From Escherichia phage BAU.Micro_ELP-22: 64,000 nucleotides of DNA. Below, piece after piece: positions 3,017-64,000 of the stretch; the stretch's first letter is position 1; every line of letters begins with the position of its first letter. The stretch is taken from sequence record OR699282.2; one strand, 5' to 3'. Under the pieces are notes generated by a model, which saw only the letters and a list, made by a program, of their open reading frames with translations, was not told the DNA's origin and did not search any database. Made by a program: the position numbers and the translations under genes.

Positions 3017-5680
3017 ATGGCAGGAGATCTACTCTCACCTGGCGTTTCCATTTCAGTAACTGATGAAAGTATGAGTACCGCTGCTGCTCCTGGCACTGTA
3101 CCACTATTTGTAATCGCTACTGCTGAAGACAAACTTGTCCCAGGAAGCAGTGCAATAGCTGCGGGAACTACTAAAGCAAACGCTGGAAAACTACAGCTTC
3201 TAACATCACAAAAAAGCTCACTTGATACCTATGGTACACCAATTTTTCAAATGAATAACGGTTCTGTTGTTCAAGGTGATGAACTAAACGAATATGGCCT
3301 ACATGCAGTATATTCTTATCTAGGCATTACTAACCGTGCATATGTAATTCGTGCTGATATCGATCTAGCACAACTAGCACCAAGTGCTGAAGCACCAACT
3401 GGCCCAGTATCCAATGGTACTTTGTGGTTTGATACCGCACAATCACAAGTAGAAGCGTATGTAGCGAAGAAAGATAGTCCAAGCAGTTTTTATGATTGGC
3501 AACTTAAGCCAGTAACTATTGTAAGTGCTGAAGAAGTTGAAGATGTAAGTCTAGTAGGTTTAAATGTTGATGATTTAGTTCTACGTTACAAACCAAGCAA
3601 TGGTCAGATGCTAATGTATAAACGTTCTGCTTCTGGGCTAGTGCAAATGGAAACTTATCTATCACCAATTAACAAAGTTCCAGTTGGCTCAACTGTAGAA
3701 AAAGGTAACATTTGGATTCGTGATGGTTACACCCAAAATGGTTCAAACTATTTTGGTACTCGTTTTGTTATTAAACGTTATGCATCCCTAACTCAAGTTT
3801 GGAATATTGTACCAGCATATACTGGTAATTCATTCCAAGAAATTGAAGCGAAAAGTGGTGTACTAAACAATAGTTATATCGCATCTCGTTTTGATGAAGA
3901 TAGTAAGAGTTTCTCTTTCTATATTCAAAGTGCAAAACTAACAACAATTAGTGCTCCTGCTTTGCCACTTGGTGAAACTATTATTGAACAAGCAGGTGCT
4001 GATAGTTATATGACTTTTGTTTATTTGAATAAATCAGTTAAAGTACTAGCAGTTCCACAAGGCGGTGTTATTAATACCCAAACTATCATCAATAATCTAA
4101 ATGCAAATGCTGAAATTATTAACGATGGTTTTAAATTTAAACGTGAAACTAATGGTGGTTTAGTTGTTTCCAATACAAAAGGTTACAGTTTCAAAATCAC
4201 ACAAAGTGGTGATGATATTTTTGCTGAATCTGAACTACAAAAACTAACAGTAGATAGTAACAACTACTCTCTAATTAACGTGAATAACTTCCGTGTTAGT
4301 TATTCAGTACCACGTAGTGTAGCAAAAGAAGGAACTCTCTGGTATGATTTCGGGAACTCCGATAATCTAACTGTAACTATGTATGTTGCTGATGTTGCTA
4401 ATGATGAATGGGATCTAGTACAAGAAGAAAACAAATATGTACAAGTTGATGAACCAGCGGCTGACCGTTTAATTTGGGTTTGTCCTTTGTCTCAAGGCAT
4501 TGATGGTTATGATTTCTATCGTAACGTTGATGGTGAATGGGTTAAACTTGACAGTACTGATCAAAGTACACTAAATGGTATGATTTTCCAAGACTTTAAT
4601 TTCCCAAGCCAAGTTCCTGCTGCGGCATTGTATCAAAATGGTATGCTTGCAGTTGACCTAGGTAACACTGAAGGTGTTGTTAAGAAAATGGTTAATGGTC
4701 AATGGGAAGTTGTTAGTGGTGTAAGTCTTGATGGTGCTGGCCTATTTGGTCGTGCTGCACAACGTCAACTAGTAGTTGAAGCACTAGCTGCTGTTATTAT
4801 TGGTAATGATGACATTCGTTCTGAATTTATTGATTTTAACCTAATTTGTGTACCTGGTTACGTTGAAACACTTGATGAATGTGTAACTTTAAACACTGAT
4901 CGTAAAGAAACTGCATTTATTGTTACTGACGTTCCAGCACGTTTGAATCCAACTGGAAACGGTAGTGCTGTACAACAATGGGCTACTAATGCTAACAATG
5001 CACCAAGCAACGGTTCAGTTGGTCGTACAACTGCTTATGATTATGCTGCTCAGTATATGGGTTGGTGTCTAAGTACTAACGTTGATGGTGAAGAAGTTGC
5101 AGTTCCTGGTAGTACTATTGCAATGCGTACATATGCATACAGTGATAGTGTTAGTTATGTATGGTATCCACCTGCTGGTACAACTCGTGGTGTTGTAACA
5201 AACGCTGCAAGTACTGGTTTTATCAACAGCGAAGGTGAATATCAACCAGTAGTATACAACCAAGGTCAACGTGACGTTATGTATACTAACAACATTAACC
5301 CAATTGCAATGCGTCCTAACCGTGGTTTGCTTGTTTATGGAGATAAAACTCTATCTGCTAATCAAACTTCTGCACTAAGTCGTGTTAACGTTGCTCGTTT
5401 AGTTGTTTATATTCGTCGTCAACTAGAAATTATTTCCGAACCATTCCTATTCCGTTTGAATACTCCAAGTACTCGTCAGGAATTTAGTGGTGTAGTTAAT
5501 AGCTTCTTGGCTGAAATTGTTCAACAACAGGGTCTTTATAACTTCGCAGTGGTTTGTGATGAAAGTAACAACACCGCAGAGCGTATTGACCGTAATGAAC
5601 TTTGGATGGATATTGCAATTCAACCAACTAAGAGTATTAACTTCATTTACGTACCAATCCGTATCGAGAAAACTCAATAA
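3017..5680 (+). CDS. tail sheath protein (large, 887 aa)
   Basis: N-terminal MAGDLLSPGVSISVTDES... and C-terminal ...RLVVYIRRQLEIISEPFLF... have the character of contractile tail sheath proteins; sits directly upstream of tube-like genes; strong SD. Confidence 0.75.
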   Translation: MAGDLLSPGVSISVTDESMSTAAAPGTVPLFVIATAEDKLVPGSSAIAAGTTKANAGKLQLLTSQKSSLDTYGTPIFQMNNGSVVQGDELNEYGLHAVYSYLGITNRAYVIRADIDLAQLAPSAEAPTGPVSNGTLWFDTAQSQVEAYVAKKDSPSSFYDWQLKPVTIVSAEEVEDVSLVGLNVDDLVLRYKPSNGQMLMYKRSASGLVQMETYLSPINKVPVGSTVEKGNIWIRDGYTQNGSNYFGTRFVIKRYASLTQVWNIVPAYTGNSFQEIEAKSGVLNNSYIASRFDEDSKSFSFYIQSAKLTTISAPALPLGETIIEQAGADSYMTFVYLNKSVKVLAVPQGGVINTQTIINNLNANAEIINDGFKFKRETNGGLVVSNTKGYSFKITQSGDDIFAESELQKLTVDSNNYSLINVNNFRVSYSVPRSVAKEGTLWYDFGNSDNLTVTMYVADVANDEWDLVQEENKYVQVDEPAADRLIWVCPLSQGIDGYDFYRNVDGEWVKLDSTDQSTLNGMIFQDFNFPSQVPAAALYQNGMLAVDLGNTEGVVKKMVNGQWEVVSGVSLDGAGLFGRAAQRQLVVEALAAVIIGNDDIRSEFIDFNLICVPGYVETLDECVTLNTDRKETAFIVTDVPARLNPTGNGSAVQQWATNANNAPSNGSVGRTTAYDYAAQYMGWCLSTNVDGEEVAVPGSTIAMRTYAYSDSVSYVWYPPAGTTRGVVTNAASTGFINSEGEYQPVVYNQGQRDVMYTNNINPIAMRPNRGLLVYGDKTLSANQTSALSRVNVARLVVYIRRQLEIISEPFLFRLNTPSTRQEFSGVVNSFLAEIVQQQGLYNFAVVCDESNNTAERIDRNELWMDIAIQPTKSINFIYVPIRIEKTQ

Positions 5681-14492: not shown

Positions 14493-15818
14493 ATGACTAC
14501 TCAAAACGATATCCTGAACGTTAAACTGACTCCAAAGAAAGCTAAAGAAGCAATGGCACTAGCTGACATGATTCAAGATAGCCTGATGATTTGGGGTAGC
14601 CCAGGTATCGGTAAGTCTGCAATCGCTCGTCAATACGCTGATGAAAATTACCCACTGCGTAAAGATAACGTAGCTAAAATCGAGTTCATGAAACAACAAA
14701 TCGAAGCTGACCCTGAAAATGCTGATCAGCTACGTCGTGAACTGGCTGCATTTGAAGCAAAACTAATCGACCAAGATACTAACTTTATCGATTTCCGTTT
14801 GTCTCAAATCGAACCAAGTGACCTTCGCGGTATTCCAGTACCAGAGAAGCTTTTCCGTAAAACTGACGGTTCTCTTCTGAAAGAATCTGAGCTTGCCGAA
14901 GCAAAAGATTATGTAGCTGAAACTGCGGTAGTATGGGCTGCACCTAAAGTTCTGAAATTGTCCGAAGATTGGAAAGGTGTTATTCTGTTTGACGAAATTA
15001 ACTCTGCAATGCCTATTGTTCAGGCAGCGTCTTATCAGCTAATCCTCGACCGTTGTGTTGGTGAGATGAAGCTACCTAAGACTGCACTGATTCTTGCAGC
15101 AGGTAACCGTGAAACTGATGGCGGTGTAACTTTCTCTCTTGCTACACCACTGCGTGACCGTATGACTCACATTGAGATGATTCCTTATCATCAAGATTGG
15201 ATTAACGATTATGCGATTGCAAAACGTTTGAACCCAGCAACTGTTGCGTTCATCAACAACACTGGTTCTAAGTACTTTAACACACTTAGTCCACAAGATC
15301 CTTCTCACAGTGGTGGTACTTCTCCACGTTCATGGGAAGCAGTAGCACGCTACGAAGATCTCAAGAAAACTAAGACAATTGATAAAGAAGTGTTCCGTGC
15401 AATGATTGCTGGTCGTGTTGGTGAAGGTGTTGCAACTGAATACATTGAGTACGTTGAGAACGTTGCTAAACTACCAGATACTATGTCTATTCTGTCTGGT
15501 GAAATCAAAGAAATCGACGCAACGCTGGATATTTCTGCGAACTACTTTATCACTCTGAACTTGGTTTATAAAATTATCGACCTGTTCAATGAGAAGCAAG
15601 AACAACGTCTACCAGTGGAAGAATGGGGTAAACTGTGTAACAACTTCATCACCTTCCTAGACCATAACTTCTCTGCAACTCAAGCAGAACTGGCAGTACT
15701 GGCAATTCGTACCATCACGCTTCATAAGGTTGCGATTTCCATTAAAGATGTACCAGCGTTTAAAGATTTCATCGCTAAGTACTCTGATCTTGTACGTAAA
15801 GCACGCTCTCTTGGCTAA
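14493..15818 (+). CDS. MoxR-family AAA+ ATPase
   Basis: Walker A GSPGIGKS (14595-14618); Walker B ILFDEINSA; MoxR-like blocks RLSQIEPSDLRGIP and ALILAAGNRETDGG. Confidence 0.8.
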   Translation: MTTQNDILNVKLTPKKAKEAMALADMIQDSLMIWGSPGIGKSAIARQYADENYPLRKDNVAKIEFMKQQIEADPENADQLRRELAAFEAKLIDQDTNFIDFRLSQIEPSDLRGIPVPEKLFRKTDGSLLKESELAEAKDYVAETAVVWAAPKVLKLSEDWKGVILFDEINSAMPIVQAASYQLILDRCVGEMKLPKTALILAAGNRETDGGVTFSLATPLRDRMTHIEMIPYHQDWINDYAIAKRLNPATVAFINNTGSKYFNTLSPQDPSHSGGTSPRSWEAVARYEDLKKTKTIDKEVFRAMIAGRVGEGVATEYIEYVENVAKLPDTMSILSGEIKEIDATLDISANYFITLNLVYKIIDLFNEKQEQRLPVEEWGKLCNNFITFLDHNFSATQAELAVLAIRTITLHKVAISIKDVPAFKDFIAKYSDLVRKARSLG

Positions 15819-15892: not shown

Positions 15893-17317
15893 ATGTCAGA
15901 TAACAAATCTACTTCAAGATTCAATGAAGTATCTCCGGCACTCCAGAAAGAATGTCAAGAACGTCTGGTTCTGGCTCGTACATCTTTGATGTTAACTGCA
16001 CCATTCTTTGGTGTACTCGCTTCACGTTTACGTCCAGTTCCTAATAATACATGGTGTCGTACTCTAGCAGTGGATGGTAAACATCTATTCTACAACGTAG
16101 AATTTGTAATGGGCATTCAAGACCCATCTAAAAAGAAAGAATATGAAGAAGCTATTCGTGAAAAGCACCCTGAAGTTACAGACGAACAATTAAAAGAAAT
16201 GACTGAAGGTTTGACTGATGAAAACCTTGTTGCTGTAATTTGTCATGAAATTCTACACTGTGCTTACGATCACTTCCTTCGTCGTGGTATGCGTGATCCG
16301 CAACGTTATAACCGTGCAGCGGATTATGCCATTAACCAAATCATCGTTCGTGAGAAAATTGGAAAAATCCAAAGTTCATGGTTGTATGATAAAAAATATG
16401 AAGGTATGACCGCAGAAGAGATTTACATTCTTCTTGAAGAAGAAGAACAAAAAGAAGATGGTGAAGGTGAAGGTCAACCACAAAGTGGTGGTGGCGAAGG
16501 TGAAGGTAAAAATCGCGGTACTTTTGGCGATATTAAAGATGGTAAGGGTAAACCAAAAGGTACTACCATTGACCAGCATGACGTTCCACAAGAAGGTCAA
16601 GAGGGTGGTTCAAGTGAACAGCAAAAACGTGATTACATGGATGATTTCAAAACAGCAATGATGAATGCTGCTCGTGCAGGTGGTACACCAGCAGAAATCG
16701 CTCGTATGATTAACAACTTTAAAGAACCAAAGATTGACTGGCGTTCAAAACTTCAACGTACACTTCGTAGTTGGTTGAAGTCTGATGCAACATATCAAAA
16801 TCCGAATCGTCGTTCTTGGGGTGCAGGTTTTGGTTCTAATGGTTCATTCTATGGTAATCCAATTTACCCAGGGATGAAACCAGATGATGATATTGATATT
16901 GCGATTGCACTAGATGCTTCTGGGTCTATTTCTGAAGATATGCTTCGTGATTTCATTAGTGAAGTTCTTGGCATCACTAAACAATTCAAACAGTTTAAGA
17001 TTCGTATCATGACTTTTGATACTGAAGTTTATACTGTAAAGGATTACAAAACTGGCGAAGAACGTAAGATTCTGGAATATCCAGTAAAAGGTGGTGGTGG
17101 TACTGACTTTGAAGCAGTATGGGTTCATATGAAGAACGACAACTACAAGCCTAAACAGCTTGTAATGTTTACTGATGGTGAACCGTGGCAGTCATGGGGT
17201 GATCCAAACTACTGTAAAACACTGTTCGTGATTCACAGTAACCCAAATAAAGTTGCACCATTTGGTGAGACTGTACACTACGAATATGAAGCTGATAAAA
17301 AGCGTCAACGTAGTTAA
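15893..17317 (+). CDS. VWA-domain protein with an N-terminal HExxH (metallopeptidase-like) domain
   Basis: HEILHCAYDH in the N-terminal half; complete MIDAS in the C-terminal half (DASGS ... GGGTD ... FTDGEP). Confidence 0.75.
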   Translation: MSDNKSTSRFNEVSPALQKECQERLVLARTSLMLTAPFFGVLASRLRPVPNNTWCRTLAVDGKHLFYNVEFVMGIQDPSKKKEYEEAIREKHPEVTDEQLKEMTEGLTDENLVAVICHEILHCAYDHFLRRGMRDPQRYNRAADYAINQIIVREKIGKIQSSWLYDKKYEGMTAEEIYILLEEEEQKEDGEGEGQPQSGGGEGEGKNRGTFGDIKDGKGKPKGTTIDQHDVPQEGQEGGSSEQQKRDYMDDFKTAMMNAARAGGTPAEIARMINNFKEPKIDWRSKLQRTLRSWLKSDATYQNPNRRSWGAGFGSNGSFYGNPIYPGMKPDDDIDIAIALDASGSISEDMLRDFISEVLGITKQFKQFKIRIMTFDTEVYTVKDYKTGEERKILEYPVKGGGGTDFEAVWVHMKNDNYKPKQLVMFTDGEPWQSWGDPNYCKTLFVIHSNPNKVAPFGETVHYEYEADKKRQRS

Positions 17318-17329
17318 GTACTAAATAAT

Positions 17330-17360
17330 GAGAACGGAATTTTCCGTTCTCTTCTTTTAT
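17330..17360 (+). terminator. rho-independent terminator
   Basis: GAGAACGG-aatt-CCGTTCTC stem followed by TTCTTTTAT. Confidence 0.65.
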
Positions 17361-17362
17361 AA

Positions 17363-17392
17363 GTGGGACAACTTATAAAAATATGATATAAT
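17363..17392 (+). promoter_or_regulatory. sigma70-type promoter (GTGGGACAA, 16 nt, TGaTATAAT)
   Basis: -35-like GGGACA 17365-17370; TG 17384-17385; TATAAT 17387-17392; same architecture at 63127-63154. Confidence 0.5.
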
Positions 17393-17411
17393 AGTTAATG
17401 TACCAATATAC

Positions 17412-17672
17412 ATGGAGAGTATTAAAATGGAACAAGAAAATAATCAAATTCAACTAACCCTTCTAGACCTAATCAATGCTGCAAAAATCATGGAAGCTGC
17501 TGTTGCACGAAACACCTTTAAAGTTGAAGAACTTGTCGAGGTTGCTCCAGTTGTATCTAAATTTGTTTCTTTTGCAAATGTCGCTCTTGAAGATATTAAA
17601 GCACAAGAAGATGCAGCTAAAGAAGAAGCTGAATCACAAGATAGTGAAACTCAAGAAGATAAAGGAGAATAA
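17412..17672 (+). CDS. small acidic hypothetical protein
   Basis: ORF from ATG 17412; the ATG at 17427 has a GGAG SD 9 nt upstream and may be the real start. Confidence 0.4.
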   Translation: MESIKMEQENNQIQLTLLDLINAAKIMEAAVARNTFKVEELVEVAPVVSKFVSFANVALEDIKAQEDAAKEEAESQDSETQEDKGE

Positions 17673-17674
17673 TT

Positions 17675-18331
17675 ATGGCAGCTATTCGTCATGTTGGTGT
17701 AATGCGTAATACAGGTTCTCGTGTTTTTGTTGTTTGGCGTTCACTACCAGATGATCCTGAACACTGCCTTATCGTTTATCGTGATTCACTACCAGAAGCA
17801 TATGTTCACGCAGTAACTGATATTGTTATGGGTCATGGTCAATCTAATATTGATTTGTGGGAAGTAATGCATAAAATTGGTTATCTCGATGGACGCAAAA
17901 TGCTAGATGTTCTACACAACATGCAGCATCTACGTCGCGTTCGTACTTGTGACATTGATATGCACACTGGTGGTAATAATAAAATTTCTCTTGATGTTCT
18001 AAACAAAGCATTAGATGAGAATCAAGCGAAAGTACAAGAAGATGGTAAAGTAAAAGACTTTAACCCATTCAATCCACAAGAAGCAGACACTAAAGTAGAA
18101 GAAGCTACTATTGTAGAAAAACTTCTCTCTGATGCACAAAAATTTGAACAACTGGCTAAAGAACATTATGAACGTGCATACAATTTAGAGCCAAGCTTGC
18201 GTCCGCAAACACAAGTTGTTGAACAACCGAAAGATAGTAAAACAATTTATCTAGAAATTCCAGAAGGTATTTCACAGACTAAAGCTATTGAGAAAGTAAA
18301 ACAACTATTTGCAGAACGTAAAGCAAAATAA
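17675..18331 (+). CDS. hypothetical protein
   Basis: ATG 3 bp after previous stop. Confidence 0.4.
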   Translation: MAAIRHVGVMRNTGSRVFVVWRSLPDDPEHCLIVYRDSLPEAYVHAVTDIVMGHGQSNIDLWEVMHKIGYLDGRKMLDVLHNMQHLRRVRTCDIDMHTGGNNKISLDVLNKALDENQAKVQEDGKVKDFNPFNPQEADTKVEEATIVEKLLSDAQKFEQLAKEHYERAYNLEPSLRPQTQVVEQPKDSKTIYLEIPEGISQTKAIEKVKQLFAERKAK

Positions 18332-18334
18332 AAT

Positions 18335-18928
18335 ATGAAAAAGAATGAATTAGATGAAGCAATTAAAGGTTTATCTAATGTATGTTTTAGTGGCGGGGCA
18401 GCAGGTGCTGACCGCCTTTTTTCTATCTATGCAAAAAATAATGGATTTGAAGTTATTAATTTTTCATTCAAAGGTCATGAGCATAGTGTAGATGAAAGTA
18501 CTATATTAGAAATACCATCCAATATTCTATCTGATATTTCTATATTAAATCAACTAAACATTGCATGTTACTCGTTGCAGCGAAAAGTGCCAAAGCCTGG
18601 TTCTTATGTTTACAACTTACTTGCAAGGAATAGTTATCAGATACTTAATACAGAAAGAATATATTGTATTGCAAATATCACATCACCAACTAAGGTAAGT
18701 GGTGGTACTGCATGGGCAGTACAGATGTATATGGATTCAGTTGAAAATCCTGAAATTTATTGTTATGATATGAATTCACGTTCAGTATTTTATTTCGATA
18801 CAGTACTGAAAGAGTTCACACAAACATTCGTCGTTCCAGCACCACATGGTAACTGGACTGGTATTGGTTCACGCAATGCCACAGAAAAACATATGGAACA
18901 TTTTATTACATTTTTCAAGGAAGAATAA
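18335..18928 (+). CDS. Rossmann-like protein with GGAxGxD motif (SLOG/DprA/YpsA-like)
   Basis: N-terminal FSGGAAGADRLF; stop overlaps the thymidylate synthase start. Confidence 0.4.
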   Translation: MKKNELDEAIKGLSNVCFSGGAAGADRLFSIYAKNNGFEVINFSFKGHEHSVDESTILEIPSNILSDISILNQLNIACYSLQRKVPKPGSYVYNLLARNSYQILNTERIYCIANITSPTKVSGGTAWAVQMYMDSVENPEIYCYDMNSRSVFYFDTVLKEFTQTFVVPAPHGNWTGIGSRNATEKHMEHFITFFKEE

Positions 18929-19857
18929 TGAAACAACTACAAGAACTATATCAAAAAATTCTAGATGAAGGCGTAGAAAGCGTTGACCGTACTGGTGTTG
19001 GAACAATCAAACTTATCGGTCAACAAATGCGTTTTGACCTTAAAGATGGTTTCCCAGCAGTGACGACAAAACGTCTAGCTTGGAAAGCAATGACTTCAGA
19101 ATTACTATGGTTTATTGAAGGTTCCCATGATGAGCGTCGCCTTTGTGAAATTTTGCATGGAACTCGTGATACAGAAAAGAAAACTATTTGGACAGATAAT
19201 TACCTAAATCAAGGCGTTGCTCTTGGTTATACTGATGGTGAGTTAGGTCCAGTGTATGGTAAGCAATGGCGTGAATGGGAAGATTATAAATTTAGTTCCA
19301 GTACTGAAGAAATTCAAGAATTAAAAGATAAAGGATACAAAGTTATCGATTATACTGGTTCACATGGTGTTGTTATGAAACGTACAACTGACCAATTACA
19401 GGAACTAATCAATGGTATAAATTCCGATCCATATGGTCGTCGCCATATTCTAAGTGCATGGAACGTTGGTGAGCTTGATGATATGACGTTGCCACCTTGT
19501 CATAGCTTTGTACAATTTTGTGTAGTACAAGGGAAACTAAGCTGCATTCTACATCAAAGATCCGCTGATCTATTTTTGGGAGTTCCATTTAATATCAGTA
19601 GTTATTCACTACTAACTCATATGATTGCACAAATTACGGGTTTAGATGTTGGTGAATTTATTTGGAATGGTGGTGATTGCCACATTTATAAAAACCACGT
19701 TGAACAAGTAAAAGAACAACTACAGAGAAAACCTCGTGAATTACCTGAATTATGGCTTGATCCTACAATTACTAATATTGAAGATTTCACAATGGATTCT
19801 TTCAAATTAATGAATTACAATCCAATGCCAACAATTAAAGCACCGATGGCTGTATAA
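18928..19857 (+). CDS. thyA: thymidylate synthase
   Basis: Hallmark blocks LGPVYGKQWREW, LPPCHSFVQF (catalytic Cys), QRSADLFLGVPFNISSYSLL, GDCHIYKNH; reading frame uninterrupted. Confidence 0.9.
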   Translation: MKQLQELYQKILDEGVESVDRTGVGTIKLIGQQMRFDLKDGFPAVTTKRLAWKAMTSELLWFIEGSHDERRLCEILHGTRDTEKKTIWTDNYLNQGVALGYTDGELGPVYGKQWREWEDYKFSSSTEEIQELKDKGYKVIDYTGSHGVVMKRTTDQLQELINGINSDPYGRRHILSAWNVGELDDMTLPPCHSFVQFCVVQGKLSCILHQRSADLFLGVPFNISSYSLLTHMIAQITGLDVGEFIWNGGDCHIYKNHVEQVKEQLQRKPRELPELWLDPTITNIEDFTMDSFKLMNYNPMPTIKAPMAV

Positions 19858-19864
19858 AAGAAAA

Positions 19865-19890
19865 GGGAGAACTGATGTTCTCCCTTTTTT
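19865..19890. terminator. bidirectional rho-independent terminator between convergent genes
   Basis: GGGAGAAC-tgat-GTTCTCCC flanked by AAAA upstream and TTTTTT downstream. Confidence 0.7.
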
Positions 19891-19891
19891 A

Positions 19892-21856
19892 TTATCTAAT
19901 TGTTACCAATGTTCTTCCGTCGAAACGTACATCAGGTGTTGAAGGTATACTGAACACTACGTTAGTGCCGTTAAACGTCACGCTATCGACCTCAACACGA
20001 GTATAGACACCAGGACTAACCTGTTCCTGTATCTCTGCTGTGACGATGTTTGAGGCTGTTACAGTAAGGGTGTAGTAGTTACCACTTAAGACCCAAGATG
20101 AAATGGTAAAAGCATCGGTTCTCACTGAACCTGAACCAATTGGAACCCATTGACCTTGAACTTTTTGCATTGAAGTACGCTCGGTATTGGAGTATGCAAT
20201 CATACCATCAACGCCAACAGAGTTATCAATAGTAGCTAGTACTGGTAATTGGATACCATATCTATTAAAACGTGTTCTTATAGTTCCATTATCATAGATA
20301 CTTACATCAGCATAATTACCCATTGATAGTTTTAAATCAGAACTAACTAATTGGATTGTACTTTGATTAGTAGCACTTTCTAATGTAATTATACCATTAG
20401 CTAATAGATTTATATTTTTAAATTTATTAGTTGTTCCATTAAAATTAGTATTAGCTGTAAAAGTACTAACACCATTAACTGTAATGGTATCTGATGCAGC
20501 ATCACCTAATGTGGTATTACCTTGAATGTTCAAATTACCACTAGCAGTTATATTACTAGCTGATGTATCCCCAGTTAATGTACTTGTACCATCAACAACA
20601 ATATTACCATGAAACGCACTTTCGCCATTTTTAAATTCAACTTGAACTTTATTCATTGAACTAAATGAAATAATATTACTACTAGCACTTAATCCCACAT
20701 TAGTATTAGTTGCATTATCAAATCTTAGTACTGGCGTTGATGCAGGTGTTGATGTTGATTGATATAATGTTAGTGTTGAATTATTAATTCGAACACGTTC
20801 TGTACCAGCAGTACTGAACCCAATTGCGTCATCGGCTGGATGAAATATACCAGTATTAGCATCGGACCACTTAGTTGGGTCATTACCTGGGTTATTCGTT
20901 GGGTCAAACGGATTATTGTTAAATGTCAATGCTGGTGCTGCTGCACTTCCATACACCACCCCAAAACGCCCAGAGCCGTCTGTTCCATCATTATACATGG
21001 AATCACCAGTTCTACGTAAACACTCAATCACAACGTTATCTATGGATGTTTGAACGGTCCCTGCGTTTGTCCTAAATTGACGATGATTTGCAATCATTAC
21101 AGTATTGTCATATAATACTGAAGCAGCGGAAATGCTTGTTCTTGACTGGCGTAGACGTATGTTTTTATCTTCAGTTATAATAATCCAATCACCATCTGAT
21201 AGTGCGGTTTGGTTCATTGGAACACCTGAAGCAAATGGTTTGGTTAAGTCAGCATCTGTTGCTAAATTTTTAAGACCATCATGACCAGTACTCGGAATAG
21301 ATGCAGGAATAATTCTAGCGAAAGCGTATGTTACTAGTTTAGCACCAGATATATTTGGATTAGAGTCAACATAATATAAAATTTCAATCCAATTACCTTG
21401 TCCAGTTGGATTTGTAGGAGTAAATGTAACAGGACTTGTTTGTGGATTATTTGCTTCATAATGGGCTTGTGCGGCATCCATAATACCACGAACAACATAA
21501 TAATCACCATTTAGTGATGCTGCTGGTGCTGGTAGTGGAGTTTGTGCTAAAGGTGGATCAATATCATCTGGAATAGGATTATATGTACCAACAAATTGTA
21601 AACCACTAGTTACTGAATCTGGTAATTGGGAAGTAAGAAGTTTACCATTTGCATCTAAGTTTGCAAAACGGCGATATGCCATCGTACCATCTTCAAAATC
21701 CAGAACACCTTCAAACGATTTCCATTCCTTATTGTATCTAATCATCCCTGATCTTATTACATCAGCGGTTTCTTTTGATGGTGCTTTCGGTAACTCTAAA
21801 AAAGATTTACTATCAATAATTACACCACCATCACCTCTAATTCGATTTATACTCAT
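19892..21856 (-). CDS. tail fibre protein
   Basis: 654 aa, Thr/Ser/Asn/Gly-rich fibrous composition; GAGGAAA SD. Confidence 0.55.
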   Translation of the reverse strand: MSINRIRGDGGVIIDSKSFLELPKAPSKETADVIRSGMIRYNKEWKSFEGVLDFEDGTMAYRRFANLDANGKLLTSQLPDSVTSGLQFVGTYNPIPDDIDPPLAQTPLPAPAASLNGDYYVVRGIMDAAQAHYEANNPQTSPVTFTPTNPTGQGNWIEILYYVDSNPNISGAKLVTYAFARIIPASIPSTGHDGLKNLATDADLTKPFASGVPMNQTALSDGDWIIITEDKNIRLRQSRTSISAASVLYDNTVMIANHRQFRTNAGTVQTSIDNVVIECLRRTGDSMYNDGTDGSGRFGVVYGSAAAPALTFNNNPFDPTNNPGNDPTKWSDANTGIFHPADDAIGFSTAGTERVRINNSTLTLYQSTSTPASTPVLRFDNATNTNVGLSASSNIISFSSMNKVQVEFKNGESAFHGNIVVDGTSTLTGDTSASNITASGNLNIQGNTTLGDAASDTITVNGVSTFTANTNFNGTTNKFKNINLLANGIITLESATNQSTIQLVSSDLKLSMGNYADVSIYDNGTIRTRFNRYGIQLPVLATIDNSVGVDGMIAYSNTERTSMQKVQGQWVPIGSGSVRTDAFTISSWVLSGNYYTLTVTASNIVTAEIQEQVSPGVYTRVEVDSVTFNGTNVVFSIPSTPDVRFDGRTLVTIR

Positions 21857-63080: not shown

Positions 63081-63126
63081 CTTTTTGATTCTCCATAATA
63101 AGGGAACATTTGATGTATTTATACGT

Positions 63127-63154
63127 GGGACAAACTGCTTTTTGGTGCTATAAT
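63127..63154 (+). promoter_or_regulatory. sigma70-type promoter (GTGGGACAA, 16 nt, TGcTATAAT)
   Basis: GGGACA 63127-63132; TG 63146-63147; TATAAT 63149-63154; palindrome GGTACAAGGATTGTACC at 63164-63180 follows. Confidence 0.5.
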
Positions 63155-63211: not shown

Positions 63212-64000
63212 ATGACAAATAGACCAAAGCGTAAAAAGTATCTCAATAATGCTGATTTACTTCGTGAAATACAAAAAAGTAAAATTTCATATTGCTGGTT
63301 ATTAGACAAATCATATAGTATGTATGATTATATTGTTTTTCATGAGTCAGAAATTACTGCTGAGTTACTAGAAAAAGCTAAGGCAGCACGAATTAAACGA
63401 CTGAACAATGAAATGCTTGATAGTATTCGTGAAAAGGAAAATATGAGTGCTAAAAAAGCTAAAGAATATGCAGATGAACACAATTTAGTTATCACTGACG
63501 TTCCAATTGATGAAGTTGTTATTCGTGTTATTACAGATGAACATATTCCACCAGATACTAGAGTTAACTTTGAACCATTCAAGCATTATATTGTAGATAA
63601 TGAAGGTATTCTCTATGAAGTTTGTCGTTCTCACTGGAAAGGCGACCTTGAAACTGGTGAATTCAGTACTGTTCATGGTAAAATTACAAATGAACTTGGG
63701 AAGATGTTCATTAAACTTGCAGAGGAAATCTCACACAAATCTAATTACAGAAACTATACATACTTAGATGAAATGATGGGTGATGCAAGAATACAATTAG
63801 TTAAAAACGCACTTCTCTTTAAAGAGAGCATTCTTTATAAAAAAGATAAACCAGCAGTTCAGCTAAATCCTTTCTCTTACTATACATCATTCGTAAACAA
63901 TAGTTTTCGTTCTATATTGAATAGTGAGAAAAATGTTCGAAATATACGTGATGATTTACTTGAAATGCATGGCTTTACGCCATCACATACACGTCAAATT
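63212..64000 (+). CDS. gp55-like late-transcription sigma factor (5' part; runs off the window)
   Basis: Frame open from ATG 63212 to the window end, not in the ORF track because no stop is present; KKYLNNADLLREIQ, GKMFIKLAEEISHKSNYRNYT and NPFSYYTSFVNNSFRSI resemble T4 gp55 regions. Confidence 0.55.
   Translation, partial: MTNRPKRKKYLNNADLLREIQKSKISYCWLLDKSYSMYDYIVFHESEITAELLEKAKAARIKRLNNEMLDSIREKENMSAKKAKEYADEHNLVITDVPIDEVVIRVITDEHIPPDTRVNFEPFKHYIVDNEGILYEVCRSHWKGDLETGEFSTVHGKITNELGKMFIKLAEEISHKSNYRNYTYLDEMMGDARIQLVKNALLFKESILYKKDKPAVQLNPFSYYTSFVNNSFRSILNSEKNVRNIRDDLLEMHGFTPSHTRQI

Follow-up and report, generated by a model that had tools for sequence, protein, structure and literature searches.

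Proteins of the SLOG superfamily combine a three-layer Rossmannoid fold with glycine-rich loops of the SGGxxGxD and GGT types. Among them, LOG and PpnN (YgdH) are N-glycosidases of nucleoside 5′-monophosphates; a link to nicotinamide adenine dinucleotide (NAD) or ADP-ribose has only been proposed for YpsA, and 3′ cyclic ADP-ribose (3′cADPR) activates the ThsA protein of Thoeris. The YpsA-like clade of the superfamily has been defined by a GxD/E signature (PMC6459960), and viral SLOG domains have been classed as nucleotide-processing or nucleotide-sensing (PMC9503650). Here, we analyzed a 64,000-nucleotide (nt) stretch, hereafter the window, of the genome of Escherichia phage BAU.Micro_ELP-22 (sequence record OR699282.2), in which a predicted SLOG protein of 197 amino acids (aa; 18335–18928, + strand) is encoded immediately before the thymidylate synthase ThyA (309 aa; 18928–19857, + strand). 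We compared this protein with the described SLOG families and followed its gene across phages, where it recurs beside enzymes that act on deoxynucleoside 5′-monophosphates (dNMPs).

Family placement of the SLOG protein

The sequence FSGGAAGADRLF spans residues 18–29 of the protein and contains the first of its SLOG motifs, SGGAxGxD (residues 19–26), which is followed by R98/N99/Q102, GGTxW (123–127), and GIGSR (176–180). Fifteen positions were invariant in an alignment of 55 homologues (S19, G20, A22, G24, D26, A77, R98, Q102, G123, T125, A128, G176, I177, G178, and R180), and in a separate set of 73 IMG/VR sequences G20, G21, G24, D26, L95, R98, Q102, G124, T125, W127, and G178 were conserved at 100%. 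In an AlphaFold model with a predicted local distance difference test score (pLDDT) of 96.8, the entire 197-aa chain forms one fold and a single domain, and the glycine-rich loops 20–26, 123–125, and 176–180 lie at or just before helix N termini. A Foldseek search with this model returned 3imk as the sole high-probability match. Motifs, model, and structural match together uphold the Rossmann-like, SLOG-type fold that an earlier note, made from the letters of the window, had assigned to its GGAxGxD protein.

SGGAxGxD stands at the N terminus and GIGSR at the C terminus, opposite to their order in DprA, which indicates a circular permutation; moreover, the GSR strand-helix at the C terminus is the arrangement that characterizes cpYpsA. 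The 3imk structure, a “putative molybdenum carrier protein” from Syntrophus aciditrophicus, appears to represent Pfam cpYpsA (PF12694, “circularly permutated YpsA SLOG family”). Both cpYpsA and YAcAr (PF10686) share the SLOG Rossmannoid fold with the phage protein, in the same permuted order that opens with the glycine-rich GxD loop and closes with the GSR strand-helix. However, the phage protein is only 20% identical to 3imk, has an extra β-hairpin region at approximately residues 141–170, scores below the Pfam gathering cut-offs, and belongs to a family that is almost entirely viral and has dNMP kinase or ThyA as neighbors. YAcAr was matched below threshold (E of 5e-4, 20.2 bits vs. a cut-off of 28.2). 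PF12694 gave no match to the 197-aa query at an E of 1 or better and hence none at its gathering threshold; two homologues, P0214 and P0228, touched it below threshold (E of 8.5e-4 and 3.6e-3; 19.5 and 17.5 bits vs. 26.2). Neither the single sequence nor the family profile retrieved a solved structure related by sequence.

With YpsA of B. subtilis (2nx2), the phage protein shares the GxD/E signature (PMC6459960), present here as the invariant G24-A-D26. In contrast to YpsA and ThsA, its topology is permuted, it is phage-encoded and standalone without an effector domain, and it has no PADLOC match; the neighbor scans revealed no fused or neighboring SIR2, transmembrane, or Macro effector and no TIR partner of the ThsA type. 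LOG and PpnN resemble it in their two glycine-rich loops and in an Arg-bearing helix before the GGT loop, and their substrate class is the one suggested by the gene neighbors of the phage protein. However, they are not permuted, and they carry the catalytic Glu of PGGxGTxxE at a site (position 130) that is mostly Gln in the phage family, so that LOG membership appears to fail on this residue. Membership in DprA/Smf fails on motif order, domain content, and Pfam model: the motifs are permuted, the accessory SAM and winged-helix domains are absent from the single-domain protein, and PF02481 (DNA_processg_A) gave no match to the query even at an E of 1. The genomic context is likewise one of nucleotide enzymes and not of DprA-type competence or recombination genes. 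Taken together, motifs and model place the 197-aa protein in the circularly permuted cpYpsA/YAcAr branch of the YpsA-like clade, and the label “DprA-like recombination mediator,” which is being propagated in RefSeq and PHROGs, is probably misleading.

Gene neighbors across the family

Searches at an E of 1e-3 or better retrieved 2,715 family representatives at 50% identity, 712 of them with an E of 1e-30 or better; standalone proteins of 176–210 aa make up the majority. The family is overwhelmingly viral, with only 29 loci across the 185,579 bacterial and archaeal species scanned, and its hosts among annotated phages are Rak2-like jumbo phages, Atu_ph07, Phosso, Cr30, huge metagenomic phages, and crAss-like phages.

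For the neighbor analysis, open reading frames (ORFs) were called in 79 IMG/VR loci and neighbors were matched to seed proteins; counts refer to 18 Rak2-like loci and 55 others. ThyA was found one or two genes 3′ of SLOG in all 18 Rak2-like loci, where the gene order is MoxR, VWA, an acidic ORF, a 218-aa ORF, SLOG, and ThyA, sometimes with an ORF of ∼100 aa before SLOG and sometimes with one of ∼114 aa after it. Among the 55 non-Rak2 loci, a dNMP kinase of the T4 gp1 type lay within 4 kilobases (kb) of SLOG in 36 and directly upstream of it in 27, usually overlapping the SLOG start (by −4 nt in 11 loci; overlaps of −1, −10, −11, −16, −22, −25, and −34 also occur). The genes that flank the kinase–SLOG pair vary between loci, and the pair was also present in four look-ups beyond IMG/VR. 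Two T4-like loci (L006 and L007) have SLOG one gene away from deoxycytidine monophosphate (dCMP) deaminase.

The window encodes a kinase of the same type (2296–2922, + strand; 42% identical by tblastn to the kinases of Phosso and L002; phrog_139, 2.6e-49), located ∼15 kb upstream of SLOG. The tail sheath gene (3017–5680) follows directly, with PF21448 and Phage_sheath_1C matched in the kinase/sheath region, and unlike in other huge phages no SLOG gene stands between the two. Because the window keeps the kinase–sheath order minus the SLOG gene, the comparison between lineages is one in which SLOG adjoins one dNMP enzyme or another: the kinase elsewhere and ThyA in Rak2-like phages.

A Pfam scan of 73 neighbor proteins from the 25 loci with neither kinase nor ThyA found sheath, capsid, UvsY, UvsW, ligase, gp46/47, and deformylase, and it found no Macro, NADAR, or Nudix domain. 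PADLOC likewise gave no match for the unit and thus no defense-system model. We also considered that SLOG might convert the GC-rich dNMP pool of the host for an AT-rich phage (the window has a GC content of 34.9%), an idea that we rejected on finding that SLOG loci span 24–66% GC. Regarding the additional ORFs of other Rak2-like genera, GAP32, BF, and RaK2 have one of ∼100 aa that overlaps the SLOG start (L010:3706–4014 in GAP32), and the ORF of 114–117 aa between SLOG and ThyA in GAP32 (L010:4595–4948), BF, and CBB belongs to phrog_22463, function unknown. Both are missing from the window.

The four-gene unit and its thymidylate synthase

The 2.6-kb stretch that holds the SLOG gene is 99.5–99.7% identical to Escherichia phages JP4, UB, and PBECO4 and 98–99% identical to 121Q, slurp01, and phAPEC6, and ∼25 Asteriusvirus genomes carry it at 98–99.7% identity. 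On the strength of these identities, we assign the source genome to Asteriusvirus, that is, to a Rak2-like (PBECO4/121Q-like) jumbo myovirus of ∼350 kb. The four-gene module is retained down to ∼50% protein identity in RaK2, GAP32, and BF, and its conservation across Asteriusvirus and these three phages argues that all four ORFs are genuine genes. RefSeq labels them, in order, hypothetical, hypothetical, “DprA-like DNA recombination-mediator protein,” and thymidylate synthase. The cluster is already annotated in dozens of genomes and conserved in a known phage genus, and the result for the window itself is modest. In phAPEC6 (MK817115, L095), the SLOG gene is intact and encodes a 100% identical protein but is annotated as two fragments, gp261c and gp260c, which makes the protein undetectable by the published proteomics.

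Positions 17363–19888 read as one self-contained transcription unit: four + strand genes, closely spaced behind an extended −10 promoter and bracketed by hairpin terminators. The layout described in the earlier note was borne out by the ORF listing, with a TGnTATAAT promoter followed by a small acidic ORF (17412–17672, + strand, 86 aa as called), the 218-aa ORF (17675–18331, + strand), SLOG, and ThyA. The intergenic gaps are 2, 3, and −1 nt, so that a single promoter would serve genes that are at most a few bases apart, between flanking terminators. The last of these gaps is the TAATG junction, which we saw by direct reading (GAATAATGAAA) and in which the SLOG stop and the ThyA start overlap by one base.

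The promoter (17363–17392, + strand) combines GTGGGACAA, in which GGGACA is the −35-like hexamer, with the extended −10 element TGaTATAAT across a 16-nt spacer. The site GGGACA–16 nt–TGaTATAAT (17365–17392) is the top promoter-like site of the region, with 10/12 matches plus the TG, and seven related loci have the promoter at the equivalent place. Two copies of the full motif GTGGGACAA...TGnTATAAT are present in the 64-kb window, against 0.00 expected (none in 100 shuffles). Its second copy (63125–63154) matches the first in the 16-nt spacer, in the upstream sequence TTTATAnGTGGGACAA, and in the leader ACATGGAGAGTA, and it lies upstream of a gene (63212–64000) whose product is a gp55-like late-transcription sigma factor (phrog_12791, 5e-148). 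Because this copy precedes the late sigma factor gene, the motif suggests a phage-specific, pre-late promoter class.

Upstream, a hairpin terminator at 17330–17351 (9-bp stem with 5 G-C pairs, then TTCTTTTATA) scores on both strands; it ends the MoxR and VWA-metallopeptidase genes and insulates the four-gene unit. The downstream hairpin (19861–19888, 12-bp stem) was scored on the − strand and is common to the unit and the convergent tail-fiber gene (19892–21856, − strand); its stem is palindromic, and by direct reading a T run is also present on the + strand (GGGAGAACtgatGTTCTCCC TTTTTT). The scan gave 8 terminator-like sites vs. 1.7 expected. A search for riboswitches and small RNAs in and around the unit yielded only subthreshold Rfam matches on the terminator hairpin and no tRNA.

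ThyA matches PF00303 over the whole profile (4.3e-101, 338 bits vs. a cut-off of 24.3), the NCBIfam equivalog NF002497 with 340.4 bits (cut-off 327), and TIGR03284 with 324.8 bits (cut-off 108). It aligns by phmmer to E. coli ThyA at 9e-81, with R21, E58, Y94, R126/R127, C146, H147, Q165-R166-S167, D169, N177, H207, and Y209 identical and the C-terminal KAPxAx tail present. In the E. coli enzyme, Cys146 is catalytic, R21, R126, R127, and R166 clamp the phosphate, and Asn177, which is Asp in dCMP hydroxymethylase, specifies deoxyuridine monophosphate (dUMP). The Asn at position 177 thus points to a dUMP rather than a dCMP enzyme, and gene 4 is predicted to be a canonical, intron-free, dUMP-methylating thymidylate synthase. 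All catalytic and substrate-binding residues checked are shared with E. coli ThyA (2tsc), although W83 of that enzyme is Tyr in the phage protein. The earlier note had set the uninterrupted frame against the intron-bearing td gene of T4; the frame does align end to end with the profile, and the contrast is true but trivial. As for noncanonical bases, nothing in the unit points there, and ThyA, which holds all the dUMP-methylase residues including the dUMP-specifying Asn, shows no sign in its sequence of a hydroxymethylase or a modified base. An insert of ∼33 aa at residues 119–151 had seemed a possible peculiarity of this ThyA; it lies at the site of the small domain of long-form enzymes, as in L. 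casei, and is not unusual, the L. casei enzyme (1lca) aligning in a single stretch. A further difference from the E. coli, L. casei, and T4 enzymes is the start codon that overlaps the SLOG stop. Old and disputed reports describe both the thymidylate synthase and the dihydrofolate reductase of T4 as baseplate components.

The two upstream genes yielded no enzyme fold and no family of known function. The small acidic protein has an isoelectric point (pI) of 4.2 and 20 Asp and Glu vs. 8 Lys and Arg residues in the 86-aa call. A Shine–Dalgarno-like GGAGAG at 17414–17419 and the leader ACATGGAGAGTA, identical at the second promoter, suggest 17427 as its real start, giving 81 aa. It belongs to phrog_13789 (function unknown; 2.4e-37), is kept in Rak2-like phages, and has no Pfam, NCBIfam, or PADLOC family. 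Matches to the 218-aa protein are confined to Rak2-like phages (70 hits); its N terminus weakly matches a small SH3/KOW-like β-barrel and is followed by long helices. We considered it as a diverged dNMP kinase of similar length and rejected this candidate, which has no P-loop, no match to the kinase seeds, and the weak barrel match instead. The description of the locus as a nucleotide-metabolism operon therefore holds for the SLOG and ThyA genes and not for the two upstream genes, which have no recognizable nucleotide-metabolism family.

The unit is surrounded by structural genes, with a MoxR-type ATPase and a DUF2201 metallopeptidase–VWA protein upstream and convergent tail-fiber genes downstream. 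The 474-aa product of 15893–17317, an “HNH endonuclease” in RefSeq and PHROGs, consists of a DUF2201_N metallopeptidase domain (HEILH motif) and a DUF2201 VWA-like domain. Its partner is the MoxR-type AAA ATPase (14493–15818), in an N4 gp24/gp25-like arrangement, and the HNH annotation is apparently mistaken.

Proposed function and competing explanations

We propose, with moderate confidence, that the SLOG protein binds a (deoxy)nucleoside 5′-monophosphate of the deoxythymidine triphosphate (dTTP) branch and either cleaves or transfers its base or senses the nucleotide and modulates its partners. The three glycine-rich loops (SGGAxGxD, GGT, and GIGSR) would, together with R98, R180, Q102, and W127, form a pocket for a 5′-phosphorylated (deoxy)ribonucleotide, R98 and R180 being the invariant or near-invariant arginines of this pocket. 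The protein would act in dTTP precursor supply, beside ThyA here and beside the gp1-type dNMP kinase in other phages. Because dCMP deaminase, thymidylate synthase, and dNMP kinase catalyze consecutive steps to deoxythymidine diphosphate, it is mainly these neighbors that point to the dTTP branch. As an N-glycosidase, like LOG and PpnN of its own superfamily, or a phosphodeoxyribosyl-transferase, SLOG could remove or recycle one particular (d)NMP; it might instead be a noncatalytic, nucleotide-sensing partner that modulates ThyA and the kinase. The stop/start overlap would hold its synthesis in step with that of ThyA. DmtZ provides a precedent for dNMP N-glycosidase/transferase chemistry in phages; DmtZ/DNPH1 proteins are dNMP-acting Rossmannoid proteins that in Z-genome phages are encoded beside other nucleotide-pool enzymes (PMC12884076). 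They are functional analogues of the proposed mechanism but belong to a separate (sister) superfamily, NDT/DrHyd, with a Glu nucleophile, and the likeness drawn to the phage SLOG protein is one of proposed function.

Several observations weigh against this proposal. The LOG motif PGGxGTxxE has a catalytic Glu that this family does not conserve; the corresponding position 130, as mapped by motif register and not by superposition, is Gln in 62 sequences, Thr in 5, Glu in 2, and Val in 2. The GxD motif is also present in the noncatalytic DprA and YpsA. For the earlier suggestion that the protein may process nucleotides, this means that a dealing with nucleotides is supported, by the pairing with dNMP kinase in other phages, whereas catalysis is not, the LOG Glu being absent. 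The ORF of 114–117 aa separates SLOG from ThyA in GAP32 and BF, so that direct SLOG–ThyA coupling is limited to part of the lineage, and adjacency to the kinase may in part be inherited synteny in one clade of T4-related huge phages, since sheath and gp13-like genes recur near the pair. Genes for NAMPT and NMNAT-Nudix lie near SLOG in L006 and L007. SLOG domains also occur within giant proteins: at approximately residues 981–1144 of a protein annotated as “virion RNA polymerase” in the N4-like Klebsiella phage Pylas (L012:5001–5492, corresponding to NC_049444 42467–42958), inside a gene of ∼4,300 codons in the crAss-like phage cr113_1 (L015:4001–4477), and, directly before a NADAR domain, in P0210 (2,942 aa). 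In Flavobacterium, Paenimyroides, and Myroides chromosomes (L096–L117), a WYL-WCX regulator of ∼300 aa follows SLOG in 21 loci. Finally, our literature search found no experimental paper on this SLOG family.

The domains in the giant proteins of Pylas and cr113_1 keep all motifs (HSGGAVGSD, NLLRRN.FQV, GGTGWAVQM, and FAGIGTREIT), and further giant representatives, of 2,474–4,050 aa, are P0210, P0216, P0241, and P0249. Four TAG codons lie in frame within a 196-codon stretch of the giant cr113_1 gene (L015:3953–4540), consistent with TAG recoding in this phage. Among the best 150 family representatives, no SLOG–kinase fusion was recognized; the fusions found were to His_Phos_1, to NADAR, and to regions of no known family, the first being a histidine-phosphatase domain in P0166 (368 aa). 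A C-terminal extension of ∼110 aa with no Pfam match is present in P0072, P0084, P0093, P0096, and the Phosso protein (L014:3983–4897). On the cellular side, the SLOG–WYL pairing holds despite differing flanks, sometimes with an ORF of 68–82 aa and another of 191–197 aa in between, and in L116 and L117 SLOG is fused to the small ORF. By analogy, this arrangement in Flavobacteriaceae looks like a WYL-regulated conflict/defense-type module. The neighboring gene of 300–309 aa was also considered as a thymidylate synthase of the same length; it gave no phmmer hit and is the WYL-WCX regulator.

A role in counter-defense, in which SLOG would be an enzyme or sponge that cleaves or binds NAD-derived immune signals (cADPR isomers and ADP-ribose derivatives) and its proximity to ThyA would be incidental, is a serious competitor to this proposal, although we place it on the unlikely side. 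It is the published prediction of the Aravind group for viral YpsA-like SLOG domains, which occur in 31% of jumbo phages, belong mostly to the YpsA-like clade, are predicted to degrade or sense cADPR-like signals, and show sporadic guanylate-kinase-like fusions (PMC9503650, PMC7824862). Our family falls within this clade and has the GxD motif; moreover, the NADAR domain after SLOG in P0210, the embedding of SLOG in the probably injected giant proteins of Pylas and crAss-like phages, the NAMPT and NMNAT-Nudix genes of L006 and L007, the cellular pairing with WYL regulators, which are typical of defense islands, and the pre-late promoter class all agree with such a role. However, dNMP kinase and ThyA dominate the neighbors in the 73 IMG/VR loci, the scan of loci with neither enzyme was free of Macro, NADAR, and Nudix domains, PADLOC recognized nothing, and the overlap of stop and start codons, here with ThyA and in other phages with the kinase, points to a shared function. 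The same adjacency might reflect mere inheritance of gene order in late or structural regions, SLOG having an unrelated role such as that of a virion-associated or assembly-linked nucleotide-binding protein. Consistent with this are the position of the unit between structural genes, that of SLOG between kinase and tail sheath in other phages with a gp13-like gene near, the SLOG domain inside giant virion proteins, and the virion mass spectrometry of phAPEC6, in which ThyA (gp259c, 3 peptides), the 218-aa protein (gp262c, 1 peptide), and the MoxR ATPase (gp265c, 6 peptides) were listed (PMC7247149). Nevertheless, the kinase–SLOG pair persists though both flanks change, the position of SLOG differs between two dNMP enzymes, the unit has its own sigma-70-like promoter, as does the late sigma gene, and not a late promoter, and so few peptides from soluble enzymes are, in our judgment, often carry-over. 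We therefore consider this explanation distinctly improbable.

The RefSeq/PHROG label implies that SLOG binds single-stranded DNA (ssDNA) and loads the phage recombinase. The match to phrog_768 (“DprA-like,” 1.3e-26), the UvsY, UvsW, gp46/47, or ligase neighbors in a few T4-like loci, and the suggestion of Iyer et al. that DprA-like SLOG proteins are additional ssDNA binders in jumbo phages (PMC7824862) favor this role. The missing Pfam DprA match, the permuted motif order, and the lack of SAM and winged-helix domains argue against it, as do LOG and cpYpsA structures that score equal or better, a pI of 5.75 (family median ∼6.8), and the dominance of dNMP enzymes among the neighbors, and we regard it as very improbable indeed. 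Returning to the proposed nucleotide-binding role in the dTTP branch, a bolder form of it would make the family a novel class of phage enzymes that act on a (d)NMP by base cleavage or base transfer and edit the dNMP pool together with kinase and ThyA, in some phages predelivered in injected giant virion proteins. The delivered domain would then be at work already in the first minute of infection, where it might, for instance, destroy a toxic or signaling nucleotide made by the host. This extension is speculative, and we think it unlikely.

How a phage controls its DNA-precursor pool has been mapped well for T4; to this picture the SLOG family adds a widespread, unassigned protein whose recurrent neighbors, dNMP kinase, thymidylate synthase, and dCMP deaminase, belong to the dTTP branch. 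The annotated cluster, the ordinary ThyA, and viral SLOG domains as a described category were already known. New here are the cpYpsA-like (not DprA) placement, the strength of the linkage to dNMP kinase and ThyA together with the lineage-dependent position of the gene, the SLOG domain in giant virion proteins, and the WYL-linked cellular branch. Should SLOG instead sense or destroy NAD-derived immune signals, immunity evasion would be linked to nucleotide supply through its coupling to the precursor enzymes. If SLOG is indeed a dNMP N-glycosidase or transferase, a second superfamily and thousands of phages would be added to the range of the recently found DmtZ-type chemistry.

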